Positions 1,282-25,270 of a stretch of 64,000 nt of DNA are shown one piece after another. This DNA comes from Pseudomonadota bacterium (GTDB taxonomy: Bacteria; Pseudomonadota; Gammaproteobacteria; Pseudomonadales; Pseudohongiellaceae): assembly GCA_022566775.1 (NCBI GenBank), contig JADFIJ010000001.1:110-64109 (forward strand), written 5' to 3'. The notes under the pieces were generated by a model. That model had not been told where the DNA came from and searched no databases. It worked only from the letters and a program-made list of their open reading frames with translations. The position numbers and the translations under genes are program-made. Position 1 is the stretch's first letter; each line of letters opens with the position of its first letter.

Positions 1282-1753
1282 GGGTATTACTCTTCTTTTT
1301 CTTGCGGTCAATTCAAGCCAGAAGCTCGAATGTCAATTGAAGATTCATACGACGGAACTTCACCCTGGTCCTATCTCCCGGGTCCACATGAGAGCCGGGT
1401 TACTGCTGATTCTCGTTACGAGGTTGATATGCTACGCTCAGTGGCGAATAAGTGCATGATCGCAATCGGAAAAACACTGCCTGTATCGCCATATTGTGTG
1501 ATATGGCTCACAATAATCAATTAATTGCCGGCTTTTTCGAAAATTTCTCGAATTATCCTAAAGTTTGAGTCCATAACGGACTTGTACTGGGCGACAGGAG
1601 TAAAGCATACAAATAGTTGCGATTAATCAAGGGCTTGGACAATAATCGCGGGTTTTCTGGGGGATTTGACCAACAACCCGGAGTTTGCTTTAGGAAGAAT
1701 CCAAACTAACGGCCTGACGGCAACAATTTGTAGTGAACGAAGAAGGTAAAACA

Positions 1754-4558
1754 ATGAAGGAATCACGATTTGGATTAGCGGTTTTTGGGTGTTGGTTTGC
1801 TCTGTTTTTCTTCCATAGCGGGATAGCACAAACCACGGTGGGGGAGTTAAACATCGATCGGGTCGCGACCGATTCTATACTTGCCTCCACCACCGATACT
1901 GACTTTCTCACCCGCTGGGTTGGGGTTCTGCCCGACCATCCTACCGTACCTAGTCCGCGGGAAGTGCTCGGTTATACCATCGGTGCCGAAGGGCAACTCA
2001 GCTCGGTAGACGATATTTATCGATATTTTGAAGCGCTGGCGGCGGCCTCTGAGCGCGTGCAAATTTTCCAATTAGGCCAGAGCTTCGAAGGCCGGGATAT
2101 GATATTGGTGGCGATTGCCGAGCCTGAGCACCTGGCCGATATCGAAACCTACAAAACTTATTTGAGTGAGCTGGCAGATCCGCGAGTGACAACTCGCGCT
2201 GCCGCCGAGGAGATTATCGAGCAGGCATTGCCTATTTATTGGATAACGGCGGGCTTGCATTCGCCGGAGCTGGGTCCGCCGGAGATGGTGATGGAGCTGG
2301 CCTACCGACTGGCAGTGGAAACCAGAGAGCCCTTCGCCGAGATTCGGGAGAAGGTGATTACCTTGATCACACCGGTATTCGAGGTCGACGGCAGGGCGCG
2401 CCAGGTTGAGTGGTATCGGCGCAATATCAAGGGCCACACCGACTACTTCGACATGCCACCGCGCAGTGTGCCGTTCTGGGGGCACTACACCTATCATGAC
2501 AATAACCGTGATGGTATTTCTATAAGCCAGGATATCACCCGGAATTATATTCAGGGTGTGTACGACTGGAAGCCTACTATTAGCCTGGATTTGCATGAGT
2601 CGGTGCCACTGCTGTATGTGGCCGGCGGCACCGGCCCCTATAACGAAGGTGTTAGCCCGATTACCATAAGCGAGTGGCAATTGCTCGCCAACTATGAAAT
2701 TTCGCGGCTCACGGGCCTCGGCCTGGAAGGGGTCTGGACCTGGGGTTACTACACCGGTTGGTACCCCGGTTATATGCTGTGGGCGACGAATAATCACAAC
2801 GGTATGGGTAGATTTTACGAAACCTTTGGCAATGGCAGCGCCGACACCATGGAGCGTGATATCGGCGATGTGCGATTTGCCGGCGAGGACGTCACCAGCA
2901 GGCAGTGGTATAGAGCCGCGCCGCCCCCGGAGAAAATGACCTGGTCGATGCGTAATAACACCAATTATATGCAGACAGGGGTCATCGCTTCCCTGGAGAT
3001 GGTGGCTAAAAATGGCAAGATGTTTTTGTCCAACTATTACCAGAAGGGTGTGGATGCCCTGGAGAAGGGGGCTGAGAAAGCCCCCTATGCCTATTTGATC
3101 CCACAGCAGCAGAGTGACCCGGACTCAGCCAATTACATGGTGAGTACTCTGGGTCGGCACGCCATCGAAATTCAGCGTGTCACAGCCGACGGCGTTTACG
3201 ATGAGGTGGAAGTCGTAGCAGGAGATCTGCTGGTTAAACTGAATCAGCCTTATGGACCCCTGGCGCGGACCCTGTTCGAAAATCAGGAGTTTCCCGCCGA
3301 CGTCGAGGTGCCACCCTACGACGATGTCTCCTGGACCTTCGGTCTGATCTATGGCGTGGATGTCATCGCCATCGACGATGTCGCCGTGCTGGAGCACGGG
3401 TCTGAAGCATACGATCAGTCCGGGCAGTTTTTGCCGGCAGCCGAATTACCCCTAGCAGGCAATGTCTGGGTGATACCCAATCATGGCCAGCGGGAATTGG
3501 GTCCGATTCGTTTTGCCCTGGGTGATGTGCCGGTGCTCATAGCGGAAGTGGAATTCGAAGCCGAAGGCAACAGCTATCCTGCGGGCACCCTGATTCTCGA
3601 TCTGGATGAGATGGACAGAGAAGAGGTCGTCAAGGTGTTGGGGGCCTCCAGCCTGGAAGTGGCGAGTCTTCAGCGCATGCCAATCGTTGCCAGCCACGAG
3701 CTGGACCTGCCGCGCCTGGGGGTTTATCAGTCCTGGACATCGACCCAGAACGCGGGCTGGGTTAGATATACTCTGGATCAGGCGCATATCCCCTATACCC
3801 TGTTTTCAAAGGATCGGGCAAAAGCCGGGGATCTCCTGTCTGAGTTTGATGTGATTCTGGTTCCCCATATGAGTGGAGGCACCAGTTTGGCCTCGATTAT
3901 GGGAGGCATCGACCCGAAGTGGTCGCCACTGCCTTATACCAATACCGCCGAGACCCCGAGTCATGGCCATATTCTCAGCTCGGAAGACATTACCGGCGGC
4001 CTGGGTTTCGATGGCATGGCGGCCTTCGATGACTTTATTCGCAGAGGCGGCACTCTCATTACCCTGGGTTCGGCCGGCGTGTTGGTGACGGATTCCGGTA
4101 TTCTGCGGGGCATCATCAAGCGCAGCTCTGGTAGCATGAACACACCTGGCTCAATCATGACGGCAAAGATTACCGATCACGCCTCGCCATTGGTGTATGG
4201 CTATGATGAGATTACCCACCTGTTCCGCGGCAACTCGCCGATTTTTTCAGTCGCCGACTATGATCGGGAATATTCACCCCTGCAGTTTGGCGTCAAGGCA
4301 TACGATGATGGCTCGGGGGATGGGGGCGATGCAGAGGCTGGCGACGACGAGGAAGAATCCAATTCCAAACCACCCCTGGTTATTTCCGGTGGGATAGTGC
4401 AGGGAGCGGATGTGATAGACGGAGAACCGGCAATCGTCAGCAAGGCACTGGACGCCGGCCACGTCGTGCTATTCAGCTGGAATCCGATGCATCGATACAT
4501 CAATCATCATGACCATGCCTTCGTTTACAATGCGATTCTGAACTGGAACGATCTATAG
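1754..4558 (+). CDS. Exported M14-family zinc carboxypeptidase-like protein (large, about 930 aa)
   Basis: ORF 1733..4558. The ATG at 1754 follows a GAAGG Shine-Dalgarno-like sequence and gives the signal peptide MKESRFGLAVFGCWFALFFFHSGIAQ. An HxxE zinc motif sits in WITAGLHSPELGPPEMVMELAYRL, and a later ISLDLHES is typical of M14. Confidence 0.75.
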   Translation: MKESRFGLAVFGCWFALFFFHSGIAQTTVGELNIDRVATDSILASTTDTDFLTRWVGVLPDHPTVPSPREVLGYTIGAEGQLSSVDDIYRYFEALAAASERVQIFQLGQSFEGRDMILVAIAEPEHLADIETYKTYLSELADPRVTTRAAAEEIIEQALPIYWITAGLHSPELGPPEMVMELAYRLAVETREPFAEIREKVITLITPVFEVDGRARQVEWYRRNIKGHTDYFDMPPRSVPFWGHYTYHDNNRDGISISQDITRNYIQGVYDWKPTISLDLHESVPLLYVAGGTGPYNEGVSPITISEWQLLANYEISRLTGLGLEGVWTWGYYTGWYPGYMLWATNNHNGMGRFYETFGNGSADTMERDIGDVRFAGEDVTSRQWYRAAPPPEKMTWSMRNNTNYMQTGVIASLEMVAKNGKMFLSNYYQKGVDALEKGAEKAPYAYLIPQQQSDPDSANYMVSTLGRHAIEIQRVTADGVYDEVEVVAGDLLVKLNQPYGPLARTLFENQEFPADVEVPPYDDVSWTFGLIYGVDVIAIDDVAVLEHGSEAYDQSGQFLPAAELPLAGNVWVIPNHGQRELGPIRFALGDVPVLIAEVEFEAEGNSYPAGTLILDLDEMDREEVVKVLGASSLEVASLQRMPIVASHELDLPRLGVYQSWTSTQNAGWVRYTLDQAHIPYTLFSKDRAKAGDLLSEFDVILVPHMSGGTSLASIMGGIDPKWSPLPYTNTAETPSHGHILSSEDITGGLGFDGMAAFDDFIRRGGTLITLGSAGVLVTDSGILRGIIKRSSGSMNTPGSIMTAKITDHASPLVYGYDEITHLFRGNSPIFSVADYDREYSPLQFGVKAYDDGSGDGGDAEAGDDEEESNSKPPLVISGGIVQGADVIDGEPAIVSKALDAGHVVLFSWNPMHRYINHHDHAFVYNAILNWNDL

Positions 4559-4661
4559 AGGCTTTGGGGGCAGACTCTGAGATATCCCCCCCACAAAACA
4601 TCTAGAGCAATTTTTTGGTAGTTGATACGTGTAACGGGGTTTGGCAAGGGGTACTGTTTTT

Positions 4662-4697
4662 CCGTTCCATTGGGCCATCCCTGGCCCAATGGAACGG
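4662..4697. repeat. Perfect 15-bp inverted repeat (ccgttccattgggcc / ggcccaatggaacgg) with a 6-nt loop
   Basis: Read directly from the sequence. No T-run follows it on either strand, so it looks REP-like rather than a classical terminator. Confidence 0.5.
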
Positions 4698-4816
4698 CAA
4701 AATAACCCCCCTGCTCCGAGCTTGCGTTCTGCACCTACACCACAATCAAACATAATGGTGCGTCAAGAATTTTAGTTTAATCTTTTGATTTAACACGAAA
4801 CTTCTTGGGAATATCT

Positions 4817-4844
4817 CAGGGACAGACTTAAAAGTCTGTCCCTG
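4817..4844. terminator. 28-nt perfect palindrome (cagggacagactt aa aagtctgtccctg) overlapping the cupin stop codon; possible bidirectional terminator
   Basis: 13-bp stem followed by ttgcttt on the + strand. It lies between the convergent M14 and cupin genes. Confidence 0.35.
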
Positions 4845-5397
4845 TTGCTTTAATCTGCATCACCTTGTCCGGGTCGCCACGGAAGATGATATAGCTGATG
4901 GTGTCGGTATCGATTTGATGCCAGCCGTGGGGCATGCCTTTGGGGATTATGGCGATGTCACCAGGTTTGACCTTCTGTAAAATGCCGCCGCGAATCTCGC
5001 CCCGCTCCATGGGACCGAGCAAGGAACTATTGCTGGTTTGCGTGTCAATAAACTCACCGCCGGTAATCATCGTGCCTTCACCAGAGACGATATAGTAGAT
5101 CTCATCCAGGTTGACATGGGCAATACCGGTCTCCACGCCATTGTCTTCCACCTTGCTACGCTGCACCACCGAAACCCCTATATTCCCATCGCCGACGCCG
5201 ATATGACGCATTACGATGTCGCTGATAGTTCTGCCTGCGGCGAGATTTGCCAGGCCCTGGGCCAGGGTGGCATCAACTTCTTTCTTGGTCATTATGGTAG
5301 CGCCAGATTCCTGGGCGAGGCTGGGCACAAGCACCCCAACGCCGAAGCCTATTGCCAATATCAACTTCGCCATCGATAAAATAGAAAGTACTTTCAT
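4828..5397 (-). CDS. Exported cupin-domain protein
   Basis: ORF 4828..5436. The internal ATG at 5397 is preceded by GGGGAGGAAAT (a strong RBS) and gives the signal peptide MKVLSILSMAKLILAIGFGVGVLVPSLAQE. Cupin-like GDIAIIPKGMPHGWHQID is present. Confidence 0.6.
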   Translation of the reverse strand: MKVLSILSMAKLILAIGFGVGVLVPSLAQESGATIMTKKEVDATLAQGLANLAAGRTISDIVMRHIGVGDGNIGVSVVQRSKVEDNGVETGIAHVNLDEIYYIVSGEGTMITGGEFIDTQTSNSSLLGPMERGEIRGGILQKVKPGDIAIIPKGMPHGWHQIDTDTISYIIFRGDPDKVMQIKATGTDF

Positions 5398-5461
5398 ATT
5401 TCCTCCCCATAATTTGACTGTAACCAGCCTATTCAAGCTTGTAATTAGTTGTCCCCTCTCA

Positions 5462-5584
5462 CTAGTATAGTATCTGCCACTGCGATTGCTTCTCCTTCAG
5501 ACCATCATGGTCGGTGGTCTGGGTCGGGCCTGTTGCAGTGGCGAGTAATGACGCCAGCGCCAAAGAGATCAAATGCGTCTTCAT
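5462..5584 (-). CDS. Possible 40-codon exported peptide (MKTHLISLALASLLATATGPTQTTDHDGLKEKQSQWQILY)
   Basis: Hand-translated small ORF between the dipeptidase and cupin genes on the same strand. The N-terminus is signal-like and the RBS is weak. No homology recognised. Confidence 0.2.
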   Translation of the reverse strand: MKTHLISLALASLLATATGPTQTTDHDGLKEKQSQWQILY

Positions 5585-5627
5585 CTTAGTCGCTTATCCA
5601 ACCTGGGTTTTATCGATTTGGTGGTTC

Positions 5628-6986
5628 TTATTCGGCTTGAATCTCTGCCGCGATGCGTTGTACATCATCGAGAACCCGTAGTAGGTTGCCGCTCCAGATC
5701 ATACCGATCTGGGATTCCGTGTAACCGCGACGGACCAATTCCAGGGTGACATTGAAGGTCTCTGCGGCGCTGTTCCAGCCGCTGACACCGCCACCACCAT
5801 CGAAGTCAGAGCTGATACCCACATGCTCCAGGCCGATGAGGTCCACCAGGTAGTCGATGTGATCTACCAGATCTCCCACATCGACGGGCGGCGCCACTGA
5901 ATTTACTTCGGCATCCATTCTTGGTGCGGCAAGCTCATCGATCTTTGCCACGGTTGCCGCATAGGCTGTTCGATCAGACTCGCTCAACTCGTTTCTCTGA
6001 GCGGAGCTCAAGAGTTCGATGCCCAGGTCTGCGGCAATACTTTCGTTGAGTTTGGTCAGCGCGTCTCGATGCAGCGTATTCTTGTCTGCATTGAGGTAAC
6101 TGCCGAAGGCGACTGTCTGCACGACGCCGCCATTTTCCTTTATACGCAGCAACTGCTCATCATCGAGATTGCGGCTGTGTTCGCTCATTGCCCGTGCCGA
6201 GGAATGAGAAGCTATCAGCGGTGCTCGCGTGAGATCCAGCATCTCCATGACGGCGGCCTTGGAGGGATGTGACACGTCGATCATGATGCCCCACTTGTTC
6301 ATTTCGGCCACCGCTTCGCGGCCCAGCTCACTCAAGCCATTGTGCAACCAGACATCGTCCTGTTCTCCGGTATTGGAATCTGCGAACTGACTATGGCCAT
6401 TGTGAGCCAGGGACATATAGCGGCCACCACGTCTGTAGAAGTCTTCGATGTTGGTCATGTCCAGACCAAGCGGATAGGCATTCTCGATGCCTATCATGGC
6501 AACTTTCTTGCCGGCGGCGTTAATGCGACGAACATCATCGGAAGTGTAGGCGATTTCTATCTGCTCCGGCGCAATTTCTTCGGCCAGGCGATGAATGGAA
6601 TCGAATTTATCGATGGCATTGGCGTAGGCGGCGGCATAACCGGCCGTATCCAGTGTGTCCTGACCCGTGTAGACAATAAGCCAGGTAACATCCAGTCCAC
6701 CGGCATCCATTTTTGGTAGATTCACCTGGGTGTTTAGATCTGTAGTGTAATTTTTATCGGCAGTAAAATTGTCGGTGTTGATATCGTTGTGAGTGTCCAG
6801 GGTAATCACGCGATCGTGAATTCCTCGCGCTCTCGTAGTGAGCTGAGCTTCGGTCTCGGCTATTTCATTCTGGGATTCTTGATTGGGAGTACTGGATTGT
6901 GTGGGCTGACTATTATCGCCACAGGCTAATAACAGCAAGGCGATCATAAGTGGCATTAAAAACTTGAGTTTCGAACACATGAGCAA
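5628..6986 (-). CDS. Membrane dipeptidase (peptidase M19, renal-dipeptidase family), probable lipoprotein
   Basis: Lipobox LLLACGD. M19 hallmarks are ITLDTHNDI, SLAHNGHSQF, IDVSHPS, IASHSSARA and ISSDFDGGGG. Confidence 0.85.
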   Translation of the reverse strand: MLMCSKLKFLMPLMIALLLLACGDNSQPTQSSTPNQESQNEIAETEAQLTTRARGIHDRVITLDTHNDINTDNFTADKNYTTDLNTQVNLPKMDAGGLDVTWLIVYTGQDTLDTAGYAAAYANAIDKFDSIHRLAEEIAPEQIEIAYTSDDVRRINAAGKKVAMIGIENAYPLGLDMTNIEDFYRRGGRYMSLAHNGHSQFADSNTGEQDDVWLHNGLSELGREAVAEMNKWGIMIDVSHPSKAAVMEMLDLTRAPLIASHSSARAMSEHSRNLDDEQLLRIKENGGVVQTVAFGSYLNADKNTLHRDALTKLNESIAADLGIELLSSAQRNELSESDRTAYAATVAKIDELAAPRMDAEVNSVAPPVDVGDLVDHIDYLVDLIGLEHVGISSDFDGGGGVSGWNSAAETFNVTLELVRRGYTESQIGMIWSGNLLRVLDDVQRIAAEIQAE

Positions 6987-7308
6987 AGTCTCTACTTCGA
7001 TTGGTGATTAGCATTGAAATTTGCCGCCCGCAGAGCCATAGATGATCCACGGGTCAGCTCAGGATGCTGAAACTTAGCACTTAGAATCGTGTAATTACAG
7101 CGCAAAGTGACAATTATCCCGCTTATTACCCATCCTACTAGCAGGCGCAAGGATATGGGAGTGTGGCGCGCCTTCAGCGGGTCTGCAATTGGACTCTTGA
7201 AATATTGCTAATTATAGCTGCGCTGGCATAACATTAGGCCTGCTATCAGCATGGCCATCCTGGCGGCTGTAGGTTTGTGCAATTTTTGAGTTACTTGAGA
7301 GTAAAACC

Positions 7309-9027
7309 ATGATGTTTCGTCGCTTAGATTGTCGATTACTTAAGAGTTTGGTGTTTTTTGCGGCCCTGGCGCTAGTCTCCACTGCCTTCTCCGAAGGTGG
7401 TAGAACTCCGCTGCGAGTGAAAAATGGCATCGTAAGCAGTGTTTCCCGGCTCGCTTCCGAGGCTGGCGTTGAGGCGCTGAAGCAGGGTGGCAACGCCATC
7501 GACGCGGCTGTTGCGACGGCATTCGTGCTGGCGGTGACATGGCCATCTGCTGGCAATATCGGTGGCGGTGGTTTCCTGGTCTACCATGGGGAAGATGGCG
7601 ATGCGACCACCTACGATTTCAGAGAGAAAGCACCTCTGGCAGCCACCGAGCGTATGTATTTGGGATTGGATGGCACTGTCGTTAACAATTCCAATCACAT
7701 AGGCATTCTCGCCGTCGGTGTGCCCGGCACGGTGGCAGGACTCTATAAGGCACACCAGGATCGAGGCTCCCTGCCCTGGGCAGATCTACTTGCTCCTGCG
7801 GTGCAGTTGGCGAGGGAAGGCATTCCAATCACCTATGCCCTGCAATCTGGATTTAGCCGCAACCGCAGAAGATTTGCCGGCTACCCCGCTTCGGCGGCCA
7901 AATTTTCCCGGCAAGATGGTTCTCCCTACGAGCTTGGCGATACCTGGGTTCAGCCGGATCTGGCACATACGCTCGAACTGATTCAAGAGCAGGGCAGGGA
8001 TGGTTTTTACCGAGGCGAGAATGCGCAACGCCTCGCCGAGTTCATGGCGGCCAATGGCGGCATCATCACGACACAGGATCTGGCGAAATATGAGGCGATT
8101 GAGCGGGAGCCGATTCGTGGCAGTTATCGCGGCTACGAGATTATCAGCATGCCTCCACCCAGCTCTGGCGGCGTGGTACTGGTGGAGATGCTGAATATTC
8201 TTGAAGGCTTCGATCTCAAGGCCATGGGTCACAACTCGGCGCAGTACCTGCATGTGGTAACCGAGTCCATGCGTCGGGCCTATGCCGATCGGGCAGAATT
8301 CCTGGGCGATCCGGATTTTAATGAGGGCATGCCGCTGGCTCGGCTGATGGACAAAGATTACGCGGCGAAGTTGCGAGAGACTATCGATATGGATCGAAAG
8401 TCAGAGAGCAACCCCGAGAAGTTTGCGAATATTTACGAGAGTGAGGAAACCACGCATTTTTCTATCGTAGATAAAGACGGCAACATGGTGAGCATGACCT
8501 ATACACTGGAATTTGGTTATGGCTCCGGTATCGTCGTTGCGGGTGGTGGTTATCTGCTAAATAACGAGATGGGTGATTTCAATGCAGTGCCAGGTGTCAC
8601 TAATACGCGCGGGCTGATCGGCACGGCGCCGAATCTGGTGGCGCCAGAGAAGCGTATGCTTTCCAGTATGACGCCAACTATTGTCGCTCAAGATGGGAAA
8701 CCGGTTTTCGCCATTGGTAGTCCCGGCGGCAAGACCATCATCAACACCACCCTGCAGTTAATACTCAACGTGATCGACCATGGTTTTAATATCGCAGAAT
8801 CGGTGGAGGCCGGGCGAATTCATCACCAGTGGTTGCCCGATGTTACCAGTATGGAAACCCATTCCCTGTCGCCGGATACCATTCGTCTTTATGAAGCGAA
8901 GGGTCACCGATTCATGGAGAGAGGGGCACAGGGCGCCGCCATGGCTGTCTTTCATGATCGCGAGAACAGCCTGTTTCTGGGTTCGTCAGATTCCCGCAGT
9001 GGGGATGGCGCGGTGGTGGGATACTGA
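7309..9027 (+). CDS. ggt: Gamma-glutamyltransferase
   Basis: Signal peptide, then GGNAIDAAVA. The autoprocessing site EETTHFSIVDKDGNMVSMTYTLEFGYGSG and GSPGGKTIINT are typical of GGT. Confidence 0.9.
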   Translation: MMFRRLDCRLLKSLVFFAALALVSTAFSEGGRTPLRVKNGIVSSVSRLASEAGVEALKQGGNAIDAAVATAFVLAVTWPSAGNIGGGGFLVYHGEDGDATTYDFREKAPLAATERMYLGLDGTVVNNSNHIGILAVGVPGTVAGLYKAHQDRGSLPWADLLAPAVQLAREGIPITYALQSGFSRNRRRFAGYPASAAKFSRQDGSPYELGDTWVQPDLAHTLELIQEQGRDGFYRGENAQRLAEFMAANGGIITTQDLAKYEAIEREPIRGSYRGYEIISMPPPSSGGVVLVEMLNILEGFDLKAMGHNSAQYLHVVTESMRRAYADRAEFLGDPDFNEGMPLARLMDKDYAAKLRETIDMDRKSESNPEKFANIYESEETTHFSIVDKDGNMVSMTYTLEFGYGSGIVVAGGGYLLNNEMGDFNAVPGVTNTRGLIGTAPNLVAPEKRMLSSMTPTIVAQDGKPVFAIGSPGGKTIINTTLQLILNVIDHGFNIAESVEAGRIHHQWLPDVTSMETHSLSPDTIRLYEAKGHRFMERGAQGAAMAVFHDRENSLFLGSSDSRSGDGAVVGY

Positions 9028-9029
9028 GG

Positions 9030-17833: not shown

Positions 17834-19219
17834 ATGAATTATTTCAAAGCACTTTTTGAGCTTGGTAAGGGACGCATTTTCACCAGGGTCTGGCTGGTTT
17901 TAGGACTGTTTTTATGGTCGTCCCTGACCCAGGCTCATGACATTCCATCTCGTGTCACTGTACATGCATTCGTCAAGCCGGAAGGAAATCAGCTGACGGC
18001 GTTGCTGCGAATTCCCATGGAAGCTTTCAGCGAGATCAGCTTTCCTCTGCGCGGACCCGGCTATCTGCAGTTTTCCGAGGCCGAGTTTTCTCTCAACGAT
18101 GCCGCCCGGATTTACATCACCGAATCGATGCATTTTTTCGAAAACGGTGAAGAGCTGACTGAGAAAGAGCTGATAGCCACCAGGGTGTCGCTACCGTCCA
18201 ATCGCTCTTTTACCAGTTTTGAAGAAGCCCTGGAAAATGTGATGAGTCCGCCACTGGATGACAGCGTCGACTTGTTCTGGCGTCAAGGTGTGCTGGATGT
18301 GCTGGTGCGATATCCCATTGCCTCTGAACAATCAGACTTCTCCGTCAACCCCGAGCTTGGCACACTCTCAAATCAGACGACGACAGTGTTACGTTTCCTG
18401 GTCCCCGGAGGTGCCGAGAGGATATTTAATTATCTTGGTAATCCGGGCCTGGTGATTCTGGATCCCCGCTGGCACCAGGCCGCTCTGCGATTTGTCGACA
18501 TGGGTTTTAATCATATTCTGGATGGCTTGGACCATTTGTTGTTTCTTTTTTGCCTGGTAATTCCGCTGCGCAGCATTCGGGCACTAATTCCCGTCGTCAC
18601 CTCATTCACTGTTGCCCATTCTATTACCCTGATCAGTTCTGCTTTTGGTATGGCGCCCAGTGCACTGTGGTTCCCGCCACTGATCGAAACATTGATTGCG
18701 CTGTCCATCGTCTACATGGCATTTGAAAATATTGTCGGCGCCAAGCTGGAGCATCGATGGATGCTGTCATTCGGTTTCGGTCTGGTCCACGGGTTTGGCT
18801 TTTCCTTCGTATTCAGCGATACCCTGCAGTTCGCAGGCGGGCATTTGTTTACTTCCTTGCTGGCATTCAATGTCGGCGTCGAACTAGGGCAAATACTGGT
18901 TCTTATTCTGGTAATTCCACTTTTGAATATTCTATTCAAGTTTTTCGTGAAGGAACGCGTAGGAACAATATTGCTCTCTGCACTGCTCGCACACAGCGCC
19001 TGGCACTGGATGTTGGAGCGGGGATTTGTACTCAACCAATATCAAATACAGATGCCGCCCCTGGACACTTTGTTTTTCGCCGCCCTAATGCGCTGGGGAA
19101 TGTTGCTGATTGTCATCGTGGCTATTCTCTGGGGTATGTATGAATTATTTCGACGCTGGTCCCTGGTCGAAAGTATTTCCGGGTACGGTGCAATCAAGAG
19201 CGTCGAGGAGGACGGCTGA
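17834..19219 (+). CDS. HupE/UreJ-family metal permease-like membrane protein with an about 200-aa N-terminal periplasmic extension
   Basis: A signal/anchor is followed by a soluble segment. The motif GFNHILDGLDHLLFLFCLVIP resembles the HupE/UreJ signature (GF.HP..G.DHLL). About 6 hydrophobic helices follow. Confidence 0.6.
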   Translation: MNYFKALFELGKGRIFTRVWLVLGLFLWSSLTQAHDIPSRVTVHAFVKPEGNQLTALLRIPMEAFSEISFPLRGPGYLQFSEAEFSLNDAARIYITESMHFFENGEELTEKELIATRVSLPSNRSFTSFEEALENVMSPPLDDSVDLFWRQGVLDVLVRYPIASEQSDFSVNPELGTLSNQTTTVLRFLVPGGAERIFNYLGNPGLVILDPRWHQAALRFVDMGFNHILDGLDHLLFLFCLVIPLRSIRALIPVVTSFTVAHSITLISSAFGMAPSALWFPPLIETLIALSIVYMAFENIVGAKLEHRWMLSFGFGLVHGFGFSFVFSDTLQFAGGHLFTSLLAFNVGVELGQILVLILVIPLLNILFKFFVKERVGTILLSALLAHSAWHWMLERGFVLNQYQIQMPPLDTLFFAALMRWGMLLIVIVAILWGMYELFRRWSLVESISGYGAIKSVEEDG

Positions 19220-19605: not shown

Positions 19606-21405
19606 ATGAAATTCGCCACCAAGCAAGGAATATCGCGCATGCACAAGCTCAACCAGATACTGCTGTTAAGCACTTTGGTAATGGTCAACTCACAGGTCAA
19701 TGCAGGGCCCGACAAAATCGGCAATTTTGCATTAATAGACCATGAGGGCAATTTTCATCAATTGCGTAAGTATGGGGACAGCAAAGCCGTCGTCATCATT
19801 TCCACGGCAGTCGATTGCCAGGAAAACATAGAAAGATTGCCAAAGTATCGCCTGCTTCGCACCACTTGGGAGCGCCAGGGCGTCACTTTCCTTGCGATTA
19901 ATTCTACCGCCAGGGACAGCCGCGAAGACATCCGCCGCATGGATGATCTGTATAATTTCGACTTGCCCATTTTGCTGGACAGCAGCCAGTTAGTCGCCGA
20001 GAGCCTGGGCCTTACCAGGGCCGGTGAAATCATCGTGCTGGAACCCGAACGATTCCAGGTACTCTATCGCGGCGGGCTGGATATTGAGTCGAGGCGCGCC
20101 CGGCCGGAGCGGGACATAGAGGCGCGCGAGGGCACCAGCTTTCTCGCCGACACGTTGCAAGCGGTCGTCGCCGGCGTCACCTCATTCGGTGAGACAGTAA
20201 CGGTGGCCGGTGAGGGCTGTGAACTGGGTTTCGCGGCGCTGGCTCAACACGCGGACAGGACCCCCGATTACGCCACGGAAATAGCACCGTTACTGCAAGA
20301 AAAATGTGTCAGCTGTCACGTAGAAGGTGGTATCGCGCCGTTCGCGATGAATTCACATATGATGGTTCAGGGCTGGTCTCCGATGATGAAAGAGGTGGTG
20401 ATGACCAAGCGCATGCCACCTGCTCAAGTTGATCCTGCGGTAAATCATTTCGACAACGCACGATATATGGATGCGGGAGAACTGCAAACATTGATCCACT
20501 GGATCGACGCGGGTTCACCCCGCGGAGAGAGTGAAGTCGATCCACTCACCCTGATTACAGCACCGGAATCGGTTTGGGAACTGGGCGAACCGGACTATAT
20601 TGTGGAAGTACCAACTTTCACCATTCCTGCCACCGGGGTGCTGGATTATGAAAATATCACCATCAATTTGTCACTCGAAAAGGATGTATGGATCAAGTCC
20701 GTGCAGCATCTTCCCGGCGATCGGCGCGTCCTGCATCACCTGCTTAGTTTCATAGTGCCAGCAGACTATGAGGAGAGGATCGTAGAGGGGGAGAATGATA
20801 GCTACCGCGAGTTTCTCGAAGGTTATGCGCCAGGCAAGGATGGAGCCGTCACCTTTCCAGATAATTCCGGGATGTTTGTACCGAAGGGGTCGGCGGTGCA
20901 GATGTCACTTCACTACACCACTTATGGCAAGGAAACCGTCGACAACACACTGCTCGGTCTCTATTTCGCGGAAGCAGAACCCCAGTTTCAGTATTCAACT
21001 TACTCATTGAGTCACGGCGGCAGCAACCTGGTAATTCCCGCCGGCGTTTCCGAGCACAAAATGAGCGCGTCCCACCTGTTTGAGGACGAGATAATGCTGC
21101 ACGGTTTAAGACCACACATGCACTACCGTGGCAAGCATATGCGTTTTTCCGTGGTCTATCCTGACGGTAGCAAGGCCGACATTATCAACGTACCCGACTA
21201 CAATTTTGCCTGGCAGCCAACCTATAGACTGTCAGAGCCCATGTTGCTCCCGGCAGGCTCCCGGGTAATAGTCGAGGGGGCGTTTGACAACTCCCAATAC
21301 AATCTGGGCAATCCGGATCCGGCGGCTGTGGTTAAGGGTGGCGCCCAGAGCTGGGACGAGATGTTTATCGGCTACTTCTCTTATTACAAGACCGCAAATA
21401 ACTAA
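19606..21405 (+). CDS. Exported redoxin-like, haem c and PHM-like copper monooxygenase fusion protein (paralog 2)
   Basis: An alternative start is at 19639 (MHKLNQILLLSTLVMVNSQVNAG). Motifs in order are IGNFALIDHEGNFHQLRKYGDSKAVVIISTAVDC; CVSCHVEGGIAPFAM followed by KRMPP; then RVLHHLLSF, VQMSLHYT, RPHMHYRG and SWDEMFIGY. Confidence 0.7.
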   Translation: MKFATKQGISRMHKLNQILLLSTLVMVNSQVNAGPDKIGNFALIDHEGNFHQLRKYGDSKAVVIISTAVDCQENIERLPKYRLLRTTWERQGVTFLAINSTARDSREDIRRMDDLYNFDLPILLDSSQLVAESLGLTRAGEIIVLEPERFQVLYRGGLDIESRRARPERDIEAREGTSFLADTLQAVVAGVTSFGETVTVAGEGCELGFAALAQHADRTPDYATEIAPLLQEKCVSCHVEGGIAPFAMNSHMMVQGWSPMMKEVVMTKRMPPAQVDPAVNHFDNARYMDAGELQTLIHWIDAGSPRGESEVDPLTLITAPESVWELGEPDYIVEVPTFTIPATGVLDYENITINLSLEKDVWIKSVQHLPGDRRVLHHLLSFIVPADYEERIVEGENDSYREFLEGYAPGKDGAVTFPDNSGMFVPKGSAVQMSLHYTTYGKETVDNTLLGLYFAEAEPQFQYSTYSLSHGGSNLVIPAGVSEHKMSASHLFEDEIMLHGLRPHMHYRGKHMRFSVVYPDGSKADIINVPDYNFAWQPTYRLSEPMLLPAGSRVIVEGAFDNSQYNLGNPDPAAVVKGGAQSWDEMFIGYFSYYKTANN

Positions 21406-21570
21406 AAAATCTTCTGTGCTCGACAAATAGTACCTATGCTGGCAACGGGATGGTATTTCTGGCACTGCTCGCAATTCTCGATTTCCAGTTTTCCATGTTA
21501 CAAAAGCACACACATTATTCATCCCAATTGTGCCTTACATGGTTTAGAATCACCCCGTTAATCTAGCGCG

Positions 21571-23289
21571 ATGGAGCTTCGAGATGTGAATAAATTACTC
21601 TGTTTGGGAATGACTGCAGCTGTTGCCGTTCTGTCAACATCGGTCCTCGCCCTGCCTGACAGGATTGGTGACTTTGGCCTGCTGGACAGTGATGGTGACT
21701 TTCATCAATTAAGTCGTTATCGCAACAAGGAAGCGTTGGTATTAATGTCTTTCGACCCCAGCTGCACCTCTATCGACTCTTCACTTTCGAGCCTGCAGGC
21801 ATTGCAAACTCAATGGCGTGATCAGGGTATTGCTTTCGCGTTGATCAATTCATCTGCCGAGTCAGATCTTGCCGTCATTCGATCTGCGAAGGCAGATATC
21901 GATCTACAACTACCCCTGTTACTCGATAGTGGCCAGCTGGTTTCAGAAACCCTGCAACTGACCAAGGCGGGTGAAGTGGCCATTCTCGATCCCGAGCGAC
22001 TGACTCTCATTTATCGCGGTCCAGTAGCGAGTGCGGCGGCAACGCTGGCTGCCGAAATCGCCGGCAGCGTCGAGCGCACCCGCGTTATCGCAGCAAGCGG
22101 CTGTGATCTGACCTATCCGGTCCGTGAAAGTCATGCCAGTGCGACCCCAGACTACGCTTCCGAAGTCGCCCCGATTATTGCCGAGCAGTGCGTCAGCTGT
22201 CACCGGGCAGGGGGCATAGGACCCTTTGCCATGGATAGCCATCTGATGTTGCAGGGCTGGTCGCCGATGATTCGGGAAGTGCTTTTGACCCGACGCATGC
22301 CGCCTACCCAGGTAGACCCCAATATTGGCCATTTTAGCAATGCCCGCTACATGAGCGATGCCGACATGCAAACCCTGGTGCATTGGATTGACGCCGGCGC
22401 TCCACGGGGTACGGCAGTGATAGATCCATTGACCGAGATCCAACTACCGAGCTGGAAAACCTGGACCCTGGGGGAGCCAGATTACATCGTCACGGCGCCG
22501 AAAATGGAAATTCCTGCCACCGGGGTAATGGACTACATTACCGTCAATGTGGAACTTCCTTTCACTGAAGACAAATGGGTAAAGGCTGTTCAGTTCATCC
22601 CTGGCGATGAATCTGTGCTCCACCATTTACTGACCTATGTAACCGCCCCAGCCGAAGAATTTGATGGTGGCGAAGCCAATGTACGCTCGGTTGCACGGCG
22701 CTTCCTCGAAGGCTATGCCCCGGGCAAAGTGGATGCCATGACATTTCCCGAAGACACCGGGGTGTACATTCCCCAAGGGCATAAACTGTCCATGCAGTTT
22801 CACTTCACCACCAACGGCAGAGCCACCACCGATGAAACCCTGCTCGGTTTGTACCTGTACGATGAGCCACCCAAGTATGAGAATTTCACCCGCTCCGTAT
22901 CGTCGCAATTCAGAATCCCCGCGTTTGACCAGGACTATGAGTCCGCAGCCTCCTATGTGTTTGACGAAGACGTAGTGGTGACAGGCCTGCGCGCCCACAT
23001 GCACTTTCGTGGCAAAGACATGAAGTTTTCCATAGAAAATGAAGATGGCTCCATGACCGATCTGCTAAGCGTCCCCAATTACAGTTATGCCTGGCAGCCG
23101 ACGTATACGCTGGAGGAACCGATGCTGGTGAAAGCCGGAACCAGGGTTCATGTCACCGGCGCCTTCGATAATTCCGAGTACAATCCGGCGAACCCGGATC
23201 CGAGTAAGGAACTGACTTTTGGTTTGCAGAGCTGGGATGAGATGTTCATCGGCTACTGGACCTATCACGCCGCCGAGCCCGCTAACTAG
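21571..23289 (+). CDS. Exported redoxin-like, haem c and PHM-like copper monooxygenase fusion protein (paralog 3)
   Basis: A signal peptide is present. Motifs in order are IGDFGLLDSDGDFHQLSRYRNKEALVLMSFDPSC; CVSCHRAGGIGPFAM followed by RRMPP; then SVLHHLLTY, LSMQFHFT, RAHMHFRG and SWDEMFIGY. Confidence 0.7.
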   Translation: MELRDVNKLLCLGMTAAVAVLSTSVLALPDRIGDFGLLDSDGDFHQLSRYRNKEALVLMSFDPSCTSIDSSLSSLQALQTQWRDQGIAFALINSSAESDLAVIRSAKADIDLQLPLLLDSGQLVSETLQLTKAGEVAILDPERLTLIYRGPVASAAATLAAEIAGSVERTRVIAASGCDLTYPVRESHASATPDYASEVAPIIAEQCVSCHRAGGIGPFAMDSHLMLQGWSPMIREVLLTRRMPPTQVDPNIGHFSNARYMSDADMQTLVHWIDAGAPRGTAVIDPLTEIQLPSWKTWTLGEPDYIVTAPKMEIPATGVMDYITVNVELPFTEDKWVKAVQFIPGDESVLHHLLTYVTAPAEEFDGGEANVRSVARRFLEGYAPGKVDAMTFPEDTGVYIPQGHKLSMQFHFTTNGRATTDETLLGLYLYDEPPKYENFTRSVSSQFRIPAFDQDYESAASYVFDEDVVVTGLRAHMHFRGKDMKFSIENEDGSMTDLLSVPNYSYAWQPTYTLEEPMLVKAGTRVHVTGAFDNSEYNPANPDPSKELTFGLQSWDEMFIGYWTYHAAEPAN

Positions 23290-23345: not shown

Positions 23346-23503
23346 TATGCCGGATGCAGGCAGCGGGAAAATGAAAGGATCCGTCAGAATCAAAGATCTT
23401 CTAATTACTGGGGATTGCTTCAAACTGCGCGGATAACTGAACCGGCACCGCAGCGATCTGGTAGTAGGAGAGGCCTGCGGACAGGAGACATTCGTTGTGT
23501 CCC

Positions 23504-23519
23504 TGGCAATTAACTTGCT
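23504..23519 (+). promoter_or_regulatory. Candidate sigma54 (-24/-12) promoter upstream of cstA
   Basis: TGGCAattaacTTGCT matches TGGCAC-N5-TTGCW with the canonical GG-to-GC spacing. It lies about 48 nt upstream of the cstA ATG (23567). Confidence 0.4.
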
Positions 23520-23566
23520 ATGATGCGGGCCTTGTAATTTATAATAATAATTCGGGAGAGTGCTGC

Positions 23567-25270
23567 ATGTCCTCGATCTTTATCGTCTTATTCGGATTGG
23601 TTGGCTTCTCATTGGGATGGTTCGTCTATTCCAAATTCATTGCTGAAAAGATTTATAGACTTGACCCGAATTATGTCACTCCGGCCCATCAATTTAATGA
23701 CGGCGTCGACTATGTTCCTACCAACAAATTTGTTCTCTGGGGTGCGCATTTTACCGCGGTCGCCGGTGCTGCACCGATTATCGGTCCGGCAATTGCCGTG
23801 TATTGGGGTTGGGTTCCTGCCCTGCTGTGGGTGACCATCGGGTCGGTCTTCTTCGCCGGCGTGCACGACATGGGAGCGCTTTGGGCCAGTAATCGCCATG
23901 GGGCCAAGTCGATCGGTGCCCTGTCTGAAAGTATAATCGGCAAACGCGCCAGTGCCTTGCTGATGGTAATCATCTTCTTATTGCTGGTCCTGGTGAATGC
24001 GGTATTTGGCACCATTATCGCCACAGATATGGTGATTTTCCCTTCTTCCGTATTTCCAGCCTGGGCCGCGATCCCGGTGGCTATTTGCATTGGTGTGCTG
24101 ATACGTAAGAAATATAATCTGCTGGTTATATCCCTTATCGGAGTGGCGATTCTCTACTTTACAATCTATGTAGGCAGCGTGATGCCACTGGAATTACCGG
24201 GCGATATTTTCGGCCTCGGACCGAATGGCAACTGGATCATTATCCTATTTGCCTATGCCGGCGTCGCCTCGATGCTGCCGGTTTGGCTGCTGCTGCAACC
24301 ACGGGATTATATCAACGGAGCACAGTTGGTGCTGGGGCTGCTGGTGCTTTATGGGGCAGTACTAATCGCCATGCCTACTGTGACTGCGCCGGCTTTCAAT
24401 CCAAACCTGGCGGTTGACACCCCGCCGCTGTTTCCGATTTTGTTCGTCACCATAGCCTGTGGTGCCCTCTCCGGATTTCATGGCATCGTCTCCTCCGGCA
24501 CCAGTTCCAAGCAGTTAGACAACGAAAAGGATGCGCGCTTCGTTGGCTATCTCGGCGCCTTGGGCGAAGGCTCACTGGCCCTGATCACCATTGTGGTTGT
24601 AACCGGCTCTTTATATGCCGCCAGCGGGGCGGACTGGGACTCGATTTACTCCGGGTTTAGCACCGGGCCTGGACAAATAGGATTTATTGAGGGTGGTGCG
24701 CGACTCATCTCTACCGGTTGGGGATTGCCGCTGGCATTTTCCCAAACCATGCTGGCAGTGATGGTGGTTTTGTTTGCTGCCACGACGATGGATGCCGGAC
24801 TTCGCCTGCAGCGATACATCGTGCAGGAGTGGGGCAATATCTACAATATCAAGGTCCTTAAAAATAACTATGTCGCCACATTGCTGGCGATAGCGGCTTG
24901 TCTAGCCCTCGCATTCGGCGTGACTAACGGCGAATATCCCGGTGATGGCGGCATGCTGATATGGCCTGTATTTGGCGCGACTAATCAGATCCTGGCCAGC
25001 ATCACCTTGATGGTGATTGCTATCTACCTGATGAAGCTGGGCCGACCGGTGAGATATATACTGATGCCGATGATGTTCATACTGTTGCTGGCTCTGTGGG
25101 CCAGTGGCTGGTATATCATCGAACATTTCTCCACCGGCAATTGGGTGCTGGTGGTGATTGAAGTTGTGGTCATGAGCATCTCTATCGTCATCATGCTGGA
25201 AGTCTGGTCTGTGATTTCGAAATTGAGAGGCGGGGAAGCTGACGACAAGGCTGTCGCGGAGGGCGAGTAA
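23567..25270 (+). CDS. cstA: Carbon starvation protein A family transporter (peptide/pyruvate uptake family)
   Basis: ORF 23495..25270. The ATG at 23567 follows GGGAGAG. The protein is polytopic, with a CstA-like N-terminal region WGAHFTAVAGAAPIIGPAIAVYWGW. Confidence 0.8.
   Translation: MSSIFIVLFGLVGFSLGWFVYSKFIAEKIYRLDPNYVTPAHQFNDGVDYVPTNKFVLWGAHFTAVAGAAPIIGPAIAVYWGWVPALLWVTIGSVFFAGVHDMGALWASNRHGAKSIGALSESIIGKRASALLMVIIFLLLVLVNAVFGTIIATDMVIFPSSVFPAWAAIPVAICIGVLIRKKYNLLVISLIGVAILYFTIYVGSVMPLELPGDIFGLGPNGNWIIILFAYAGVASMLPVWLLLQPRDYINGAQLVLGLLVLYGAVLIAMPTVTAPAFNPNLAVDTPPLFPILFVTIACGALSGFHGIVSSGTSSKQLDNEKDARFVGYLGALGEGSLALITIVVVTGSLYAASGADWDSIYSGFSTGPGQIGFIEGGARLISTGWGLPLAFSQTMLAVMVVLFAATTMDAGLRLQRYIVQEWGNIYNIKVLKNNYVATLLAIAACLALAFGVTNGEYPGDGGMLIWPVFGATNQILASITLMVIAIYLMKLGRPVRYILMPMMFILLLALWASGWYIIEHFSTGNWVLVVIEVVVMSISIVIMLEVWSVISKLRGGEADDKAVAEGE

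Follow-up and report, generated by a model that had tools for sequence, protein, structure and literature searches.

Three predicted periplasmic fusions of a thioredoxin fold, a single haem c domain and a PHM/DBH-type copper core beside PAL-like propeller genes in a Pseudohongiellaceae genome

The 64,000-nucleotide stretch analysed here, referred to as the window, comes from a Pseudohongiellaceae bacterium of the Gammaproteobacteria (assembly GCA_022566775.1, contig JADFIJ010000001.1, positions 110 to 64,109 of the forward strand) and encodes three diverged copies of a fusion protein, in which a thioredoxin-fold domain and a haem domain with a single CxxCH motif precede a core of the type found in the two-copper enzymes PHM and DBH. 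An earlier note, made from the DNA letters alone, had described three open reading frames with one shared domain order, two of them in tandem on the plus strand and the third on the minus strand about 7 kb upstream. The three genes were recovered in exactly this arrangement:

19606..21405, plus strand: copy 1, 599 residues as the listed open reading frame
21571..23289, plus strand: copy 2, 572 residues, with the architecture of copy 1
10904..12637, minus strand: copy 3, 577 residues, with the architecture of copy 1

Translation of copy 1 probably starts at Met12 (nucleotide 19639), because close homologues are 588 residues long. In an alignment of the paralogs, copies 2 and 3 match copy 1 from end to end with identities of 49% and 41%, and about 160 columns are invariant. 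These include every motif quoted in the note, namely I(G/S)(N/D)F.L(I/L)D..G.FHQ, CVSCH followed by GGI(A/G)PFAM, and (K/R)RMPP, all of which are present in the three copies. At each N-terminus a few charged residues and a hydrophobic segment are followed by an Ala-rich site resembling a cleavage site; these signal peptides were judged by eye alone. The order of modules is then the same throughout: signal-like sequence, thioredoxin-fold domain, single-CxxCH haem domain and two-copper PHM/DBH-type core. We hold this architectural reading of a three-module fusion with high confidence. An AlphaFold2 model of copy 1, with a 63-sequence alignment as input, reached a mean predicted local distance difference test score (pLDDT) of 91 and a predicted template modelling score of 0.88, and the latter indicates that the three domains are confidently packed in a fixed arrangement in the model. 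The modules of copy 1 and the two haem motifs lie at the following positions:

19711..20190, plus strand: thioredoxin-fold (peroxiredoxin-like) domain, residues ~36-195, AhpC-TSA score 30.7 bits
20305..20319, plus strand: haem c attachment motif CVSCH (C234, C237, H238), with both Cys and the His invariant in 63 of 63 relatives
20413..20421, plus strand: M270-P-P, containing the candidate distal Met ligand of the haem, invariant in 63 of 63 relatives, the ligand role being a prediction
20557..21402, plus strand: PHM/DBH-like core, residues ~318-599, supported by Foldseek and profile alignment

The top PDB matches of the copy 1 model in Foldseek are rat PHM and human DBH (4zel), with both lobes covered, and PHM structure 3mll is matched at an E-value of 1.2e-13 over ~290 of ~305 columns with a template modelling score, normalized to the target, of 0.63. 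When the whole PDB was searched with a 20-sequence profile of the core, only PHM (8e-7) and DBH (2.9e-5) were returned, and single-sequence and three-sequence profile searches of the PDB found the thioredoxin-like domain alone and left the core without a match. The Pfam family Cu2_monoox_C scored 28.2, 23.1 and 17.2 bits in copies 1, 2 and 3, respectively, against a gathering cut-off of 23. The earlier note's assignment of the C-terminal half to the Cu2 monooxygenases of the PHM/DBH type is borne out: both lobes are matched at the level of fold, PHM and DBH are the sole profile matches in the PDB, and the profile search, which had been set beforehand as the test, did not assign the core to a family unrelated to these enzymes. 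The ligand positions of the two copper sites were read from the alignment of the core profile to PHM, and their conservation was counted in 63 diverse relatives:

CuH ligand H107 of PHM: copy 1 H377, in 63 of 63 relatives
CuH ligand H108 of PHM: copy 1 H378, in 57 of 63 relatives
CuH ligand H172 of PHM: copy 1 H436, in 58 of 63 relatives
CuM ligand H242 of PHM: copy 1 H504, in 56 of 63 relatives
CuM ligand H244 of PHM: copy 1 H506, in 61 of 63 relatives
CuM ligand M314 of PHM: copy 1 M586, in 58 of 63 relatives

The three CuH-type His are also invariant across copies 1-3. By sequence and model, the core is thus predicted to be a PHM/DBH homologue with both copper sites intact. A PNGase F-like domain without copper was considered and ruled out, as all six copper ligands are conserved. 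Between the HxH and Met ligands the C-lobe also contains an invariant loop, D-N-S-x2-N-x2-N-P-D-P, which spans D561-P572 in copy 1 and recurs in the other two copies. PHM has a gap here in the profile alignment and so lacks the loop, which could bind Ca2+ or substrate.

In the haem domain, CVSCH is present in all three copies, which agrees with the note's claim of one CxxCH and a candidate axial Met in (K/R)RMPP. Single-sequence Pfam matches of the haem segment to cytochrome c families were all below the gathering score, and the same holds for the matches among 31 diverse members, which were nonetheless consistent: 30 matched Haem_bd and Cytochrome_CBB3 and 23 matched PccH. A profile of the domain matches PccH and the haem domain at the C-terminus of hydrazine synthase alpha (E-value 2e-4 for the latter). 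The exported protein would accordingly be expected to incorporate its haem covalently, judging from the attachment motif.

In the thioredoxin-fold domain the fold is retained and the redox motif is lost. AhpC-TSA is above the Pfam gathering threshold in copies 1, 2 and 3, and sequence and Foldseek searches place 3u5r (SMc02350), 2ywi and 2cvb, all uncharacterized thioredoxin/peroxiredoxin-like proteins, as the closest solved structures, with ResA also among the structural matches in Foldseek. The redoxin-like domain of the earlier note therefore stands as a thioredoxin fold, with the correction that its redox motif is lost. The alignment contains no CxxC in this domain of copies 1-3, and the position of the redox motif is occupied by VDCQEN in copy 1 (a single Cys, Cys71), PSCTSI in copy 2 and E-DSRD, without Cys, in copy 3. 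Among the 63 diverse relatives a single 'GCP' Cys occurs in 48 and a second Cys in none. Because CxxC is missing, copy 3 has no Cys at the motif position and the second Cys is never present in relatives, the domain in the window copies is best read from its sequence as a redox-degenerate scaffold. On the same grounds, the name 'peroxiredoxin' is a misnomer for the fusion protein as a whole.

Differences among the copies concern the positions that contact the substrate in PHM. In that enzyme the terminal carboxylate of the substrate is salt-bridged to Arg240, and Tyr318 and Asn316 make secondary contacts (PMC12164859). In the core-profile alignment, R502 and Y590 of copy 1 occupy the R240 and Y318 positions; copy 2 keeps both equivalents, and copy 3 has Gly and Phe instead. 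The pattern was followed across related loci (n = 80), which were found with the three-paralog alignment, whose patterns bias the set of loci toward the subfamily of the window. Arg and Tyr are retained together in 47 of 48 orthologues of copy 1 and 56 of 59 orthologues of copy 2, and copy 3 orthologues carry G..F or G..N in their place. Orthologues of each copy are 60-80% identical between genomes and the paralogs 41-49%, and the triplication must therefore be old. The suggestion that the copies are sub-specialized fits such old paralogs that differ at substrate-contacting positions. Carboxylate-terminated (glycine-like) substrates would fit copies 1 and 2 only, and copy 3 probably takes a different substrate because the carboxylate anchor is missing.

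Two paralogous NHL propellers are encoded between copy 3 and copy 1, both on the minus strand:

16409..17626, minus strand: PAL-like NHL beta-propeller b, with an N-terminal hydrophobic helix; start probably at Met9
14974..16164, minus strand: PAL-like NHL beta-propeller a, a Pfam NHL match 62% identical to b

Residues 67-375 of propeller b, nearly its whole length, match the PAL domain of rat PAM (3fvz) at an E-value of 1.6e-6, and its AlphaFold2 model (pLDDT 79.5) has PAL as top PDB match in Foldseek (E-value 4.1e-17). The zinc ligands of PAL are H585, H690 and H786 and its catalytic residues Y654, R706 and R533; with one fixed numbering offset of 491, all six positions fall on the right residue types. 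R533, H585, Y654 and R706 fall on identical residues in the propeller b alignment, the counterpart of H690 sits one residue away, and for the H786 region, 'APHSVATDSEGNLY' versus 'HDIVASEDGTVY', the match was made by eye alone, the propeller motif being 'APHS'. The residues aligned with all six PAL positions (R533, H585, H690, Y654, R706 and H786) are invariant in an 18-homologue alignment, and propeller a keeps the invariant His, Tyr and Arg residues of propeller b. By sequence, and in propeller b also by model, the two propellers resemble PAL-like lyases, and their lyase activity is putative. Nothing else in the gene context of this genome points as strongly to function as these genes between the copies, which the earlier note had missed. 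A terminator-like hairpin (16356-16385, minus strand), with a 13-bp stem followed by a T run, stands directly after the gene for propeller b, and the two genes are probably separate transcription units because this strong hairpin lies between them. Scans for promoters and terminators otherwise yielded no more sites than in shuffled sequence, this hairpin being the sole exception.

Further genes surround and interrupt the cluster:

17834..19219, plus strand: HupE/UreJ_2 membrane protein (PF13795, E-value 9e-41), directly upstream of copy 1
23495..25270, plus strand: CstA-family transporter (PF02554, E-value 3.9e-133), directly downstream of copy 2
within 13046-14477, plus strand: DNA/RNA non-specific endonuclease of 279 residues, syntenic in 46 of 80 loci
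within 13046-14477, minus strand: secreted-looking protein of 190 residues without a family match, syntenic in 53 of 80 loci

The N-terminal ~220 residues of the HupE/UreJ_2 protein belong to no known family. The protein keeps the sequence 'HILDGLDH', which by eye resembles the His-containing motif of HupE/UreJ nickel permeases, and it might supply or handle a metal (Cu, Zn or Ni) for the cluster. The CstA reading frame is listed from a TTG codon, and Pfam matches it from residue 27 onward; the internal, in-frame Met of 'MSSIFIVLFG' at residue 25 is probably the true start. Upstream of the cluster (window 1733-10733) lies a run of peptide and amide hydrolase genes encoding an M14 carboxypeptidase-like protein (941 residues), a cupin, an M19 dipeptidase, a gamma-glutamyltranspeptidase and an Amidohydro_3 protein. 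Within this run, synteny with the cluster is limited to the amidohydrolase (29 of 80 loci). Gamma-glutamyltranspeptidase and M19 dipeptidase form the classical pair for the breakdown of glutathione (gamma-Glu-Cys-Gly), whose C-terminus is glycine. Downstream of the cluster (window 25792-46786) are birA, coaX, tRNA-Tyr/Gly/Thr, tuf, tRNA-Trp, rpoB, rpoC, fusA and a second tuf. The locus is a conserved core-chromosomal region of a marine gammaproteobacterial genome of the Pseudohongiellaceae/OM182 type and not an island, and its core-chromosomal, syntenic nature rules out a mobile element or island.

Across the 80 related loci, the closest of which come from Pseudohongiella, OM182 and Pseudomonadales metagenome-assembled genomes (MAGs), the genes recur in the order PHM3, endonuclease, small secreted protein, PAL gene or genes, HupE, PHM1, PHM2, CstA and BirA; PAL is found in 61, HupE in 59 and CstA in 58. 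In a distant gammaproteobacterial lineage (loci L045, L046, L051 and L052) a PAL-like gene lies 3-5 kb from a PHM-like gene, in a different arrangement and with unrelated genes between the two. A divergently adjacent MMPL/RND-type transporter of ~780 residues accompanies the fusion gene at a Halioglobus-like locus (L089, 7455-9806) and at a Myxococcota locus (L090, 7431-9764), and this neighbour may place the main 'GCP'-type branch of the family in another setting, one related to lipids.

The fusion had been called unusual, which does not hold: it is widespread, and unusual only in comparison with characterized enzymes. When cluster representatives at 50% identity were searched exhaustively, there were 12,732 matches at an E-value of at most 1e-3 and 1,982 at 1e-30 or below, the latter mostly full-length. 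By source name, members come from Halioglobus, Pseudomonadales, Bacteroidota, Myxococcota and Planctomycetota, and one member, 'Proteobacteria bacterium 005FR1', stems from a record other than a MAG. They are labelled 'redoxin domain-containing protein', 'peroxiredoxin', 'thiol-disulfide isomerase' or 'mono/diheme cytochrome c family protein'. One further locus (L087, 4171-15188, GCA_054033915.1) encodes two further single copies and a 1,251-residue protein with two tandem fusion units; a neighbouring PSCyt1/PSCyt2/PSD1 protein suggests that this contig is planctomycete.

We propose that each fusion gene encodes a secreted periplasmic enzyme of three modules, whose haem c would be loaded in the periplasm, would be reduced by single electrons from respiratory carriers and would pass these to CuH in place of ascorbate. 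CuM (His2Met) would then bind O2 and hydroxylate a C-H bond beside nitrogen, which by homology may be the C-alpha of a glycine-terminated substrate. The PAL-like zinc lyases would split the hydroxylated peptide or N-acylglycine into an amide and glyoxylate, and the products or leftover peptides may be imported or degraded further by the adjoining transporter and hydrolases. The role would probably be the scavenging of organic nitrogen and carbon, over hormone maturation. The glycine step is proposed as a two-gene version of the PAM reaction because both anchors, Arg and Tyr, are retained in copies 1 and 2, which adjoin two PAL-like genes. Architecture, fold, conserved ligands and motifs and synteny are what the analysis shows directly, whereas haem incorporation, the direction of electron flow, substrate and products are deduced from these. 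Our confidence differs among the parts. That the haem serves as electron input to CuH, as the earlier note had suggested, seems fairly probable; the combined picture of periplasmic, respiratory-fed and ascorbate-free monooxygenases that probably cleave glycine-terminated compounds together with lyases stands just on the favourable side of even; and the peptidylglycine or acylglycine pathway itself is tentative, somewhat short of an even chance.

Several observations weigh against this proposal. The core is only ~16% identical to PHM in the Foldseek alignment, and the Pfam model of the N-lobe, Cu2_monooxygen, has no match in copies 1-3 at an E-value of 0.1 or less. The PHM N316 position is Ile in copy 1 in the profile alignment, and the Arg240 position is variable in the wider family, as represented by the 63 relatives. 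PAL neighbours are absent from the Bacteroidota-, Planctomycete-, Halioglobus- and Myxococcota-type contigs examined, synteny inside a single bacterial family says little about functional linkage, and the peptidylglycine reading, if valid at all, may be limited to the lineage of the window. Alpha-hydroxyglycine breaks down non-enzymatically above neutral pH (PMC6529398), and one could speculate that this makes a lyase dispensable where PAL is absent. Ascorbate has in addition been suggested to act as an activator of PHM besides its function as a reductant (PMC12164859), and a haem could therefore not replace it in that role.

The alternative that survives best would keep a haem-wired PHM/DBH-type monooxygenase and give it other substrates, such as amines, lipids or dissolved organics, hydroxylated as by DBH, with the PAL-like propellers being mere neighbours or acting on something else. 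The variable R240 position, the missing N316 equivalent and the lack of a PAL neighbour in most of the family argue for it, as do a DBH match nearly as good as that to PHM and the MMPL/RND neighbour that two distant lineages have in common. However, copies 1 and 2 and their orthologues conserve the carboxylate-binding Arg and Tyr of PHM, PAL-like genes with conserved, aligned catalytic residues lie inside the cluster, and such genes recur near PHM-like genes in a second lineage. We regard this alternative as rather unlikely. A reading in which the haem is an exit or a sensor, so that the protein is an oxidase or dehydrogenase sending electrons outward or handles peroxide or superoxide, is improbable. 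The direction of electron flow is not readable from sequence, and both the thioredoxin/peroxiredoxin-like scaffold and the naming as 'peroxiredoxin' give a hint of oxidant chemistry, but the peroxidatic or resolving cysteines are missing, and the full set of CuH (His3) and CuM (His2Met) ligands is the signature of O2-activating hydroxylases, which use two electrons per turnover (PMC12164859).

Still less credible is a biosynthetic bacterial PAM that matures a secreted peptide, either a signal or a ribosomally synthesized and post-translationally modified peptide (RiPP). A pair of PHM and PAL does amidate peptides in eukaryotes (PMC6529398), and the proteins here are exported, as far as the signal-like sequences read by eye indicate. 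However, no genes for precursor peptides, RiPP tailoring or export turned up in the cluster, which has peptidases, gamma-glutamyltranspeptidase, an amidohydrolase and a CstA importer as neighbours, and three monooxygenase and two lyase paralogs at a core locus near birA and tuf/rpoBC look like broad-substrate catabolism. The public annotation as a peroxiredoxin or thiol-disulfide oxidoreductase, which rests on the AhpC-TSA score above threshold and on database names, has next to no probability, since there is no CxxC, the lone motif Cys occurs in 48 of 63 relatives and is absent from copy 3, and the names ignore the haem and copper monooxygenase modules, which account for two thirds of the chain; applied to the entire protein, the annotation is ruled out by the missing cysteines and effectively refuted.

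The haem-wired monooxygenase that we favour would matter in several respects. PHM and DBH are textbook ascorbate-dependent enzymes that are functionally known only from eukaryotes. The fusion probably departs from ascorbate dependence, the biochemical definition of the PHM/DBH family. The electron route to CuH and ascorbate as an allosteric trigger are live questions for PHM (PMC12164859), and a natural version with a haem donor, if true, would allow electron delivery to an uncoupled copper pair to be studied in the absence of ascorbate; the enzyme being soluble and bacterial, its expression in bacteria should be feasible. Thousands of sequences in Gammaproteobacteria, Bacteroidota, Planctomycetota and Myxococcota are filed under 'peroxiredoxin' or 'redoxin' labels, and such uniform labelling would hide a whole class of periplasmic O2-dependent C-H hydroxylases in metagenome annotation. 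PHM-like beside PAL-like genes constitute a testable candidate for a bacterial pathway of peptide or acyl-glycine cleavage, and bear on the origin of amidation. The boldest form of the idea, in which the abundant marine heterotrophs of Pseudohongiellaceae and OM182 run an ascorbate-independent two-gene 'bacterial PAM' that cleaves glycine-terminated peptides or N-acylglycines to amides and glyoxylate, is possible but on balance unlikely; if true, it would represent a periplasmic dissolved-organic-nitrogen route previously unrecognized and would point to a prokaryotic stock behind the eukaryotic amidating enzyme. The interest is chiefly for specialists in copper enzymes and marine microbiology, and everything beyond the architecture is inference. 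A literature search found no paper on bacterial PHM homologues or this fusion, with subscription journals mostly outside its coverage. The catalytic core is known already and the domain combination is already listed by automated databases; the novelty lies in the electron-input module, in the compartment and, for this lineage, in the split arrangement of PHM and PAL.

Among known systems, PHM itself (1phm, 1opm and 3mll; the catalytic core of PAM) is similar in its two-lobe beta-sandwich over ~290 residues and in its copper ligands, with H107, H108 and H172 of CuH and H242, H244 and M314 of CuM all aligning with the bacterial core. The bacterial protein differs in being predicted as periplasmic, in the thioredoxin-fold and haem c domains fused to its N-terminus, in the lack of the PHM disulfides (the copy 1 core has no Cys) and in its presumed reductant, which is the haem, whereas that of PHM is ascorbate. 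DBH, tyramine beta-monooxygenase and MOXD (4zel) have the copper core in common with the bacterial fusion, and enzymes of the DBH type carry an extra N-terminal domain (DOMON) before it (PMC12164859). DOMON is unrelated to the bacterial thioredoxin-fold and c-type haem modules, and the bacterial fusion lacks the dimerization domain and, in copies 1 and 2, has carboxylate anchors of the PHM type. The propellers share with PAL (3fvz) the six-bladed NHL fold, PAL being their best structural match, but they are only ~20% identical to it, stand alone, carry an N-terminal hydrophobic helix and have Ser at the D787 equivalent. In contrast to bifunctional PAM, PHM and PAL are not one polypeptide here, and the PAL-like reading frames are separate and on the strand opposite copies 1 and 2. 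The proteins of known structure 3u5r, 2ywi and 2cvb match the N-terminal domain over its full length, and the wider fusion family has their single conserved 'GCP' Cys, whereas the window copies carry a degraded motif (DCQ, SCT or none) and are fused to haem and copper modules. Finally, copper enzymes wired to a haem are found elsewhere, as in the cytochrome c-fused NirK and in cellobiose dehydrogenase, whose cytochrome domain reduces the copper of LPMO. Their likeness to the fusion lies in a built-in or dedicated haem domain that gives single electrons to a catalytic copper, and as the copper folds and the chemistry are unrelated it is a likeness by analogy only.

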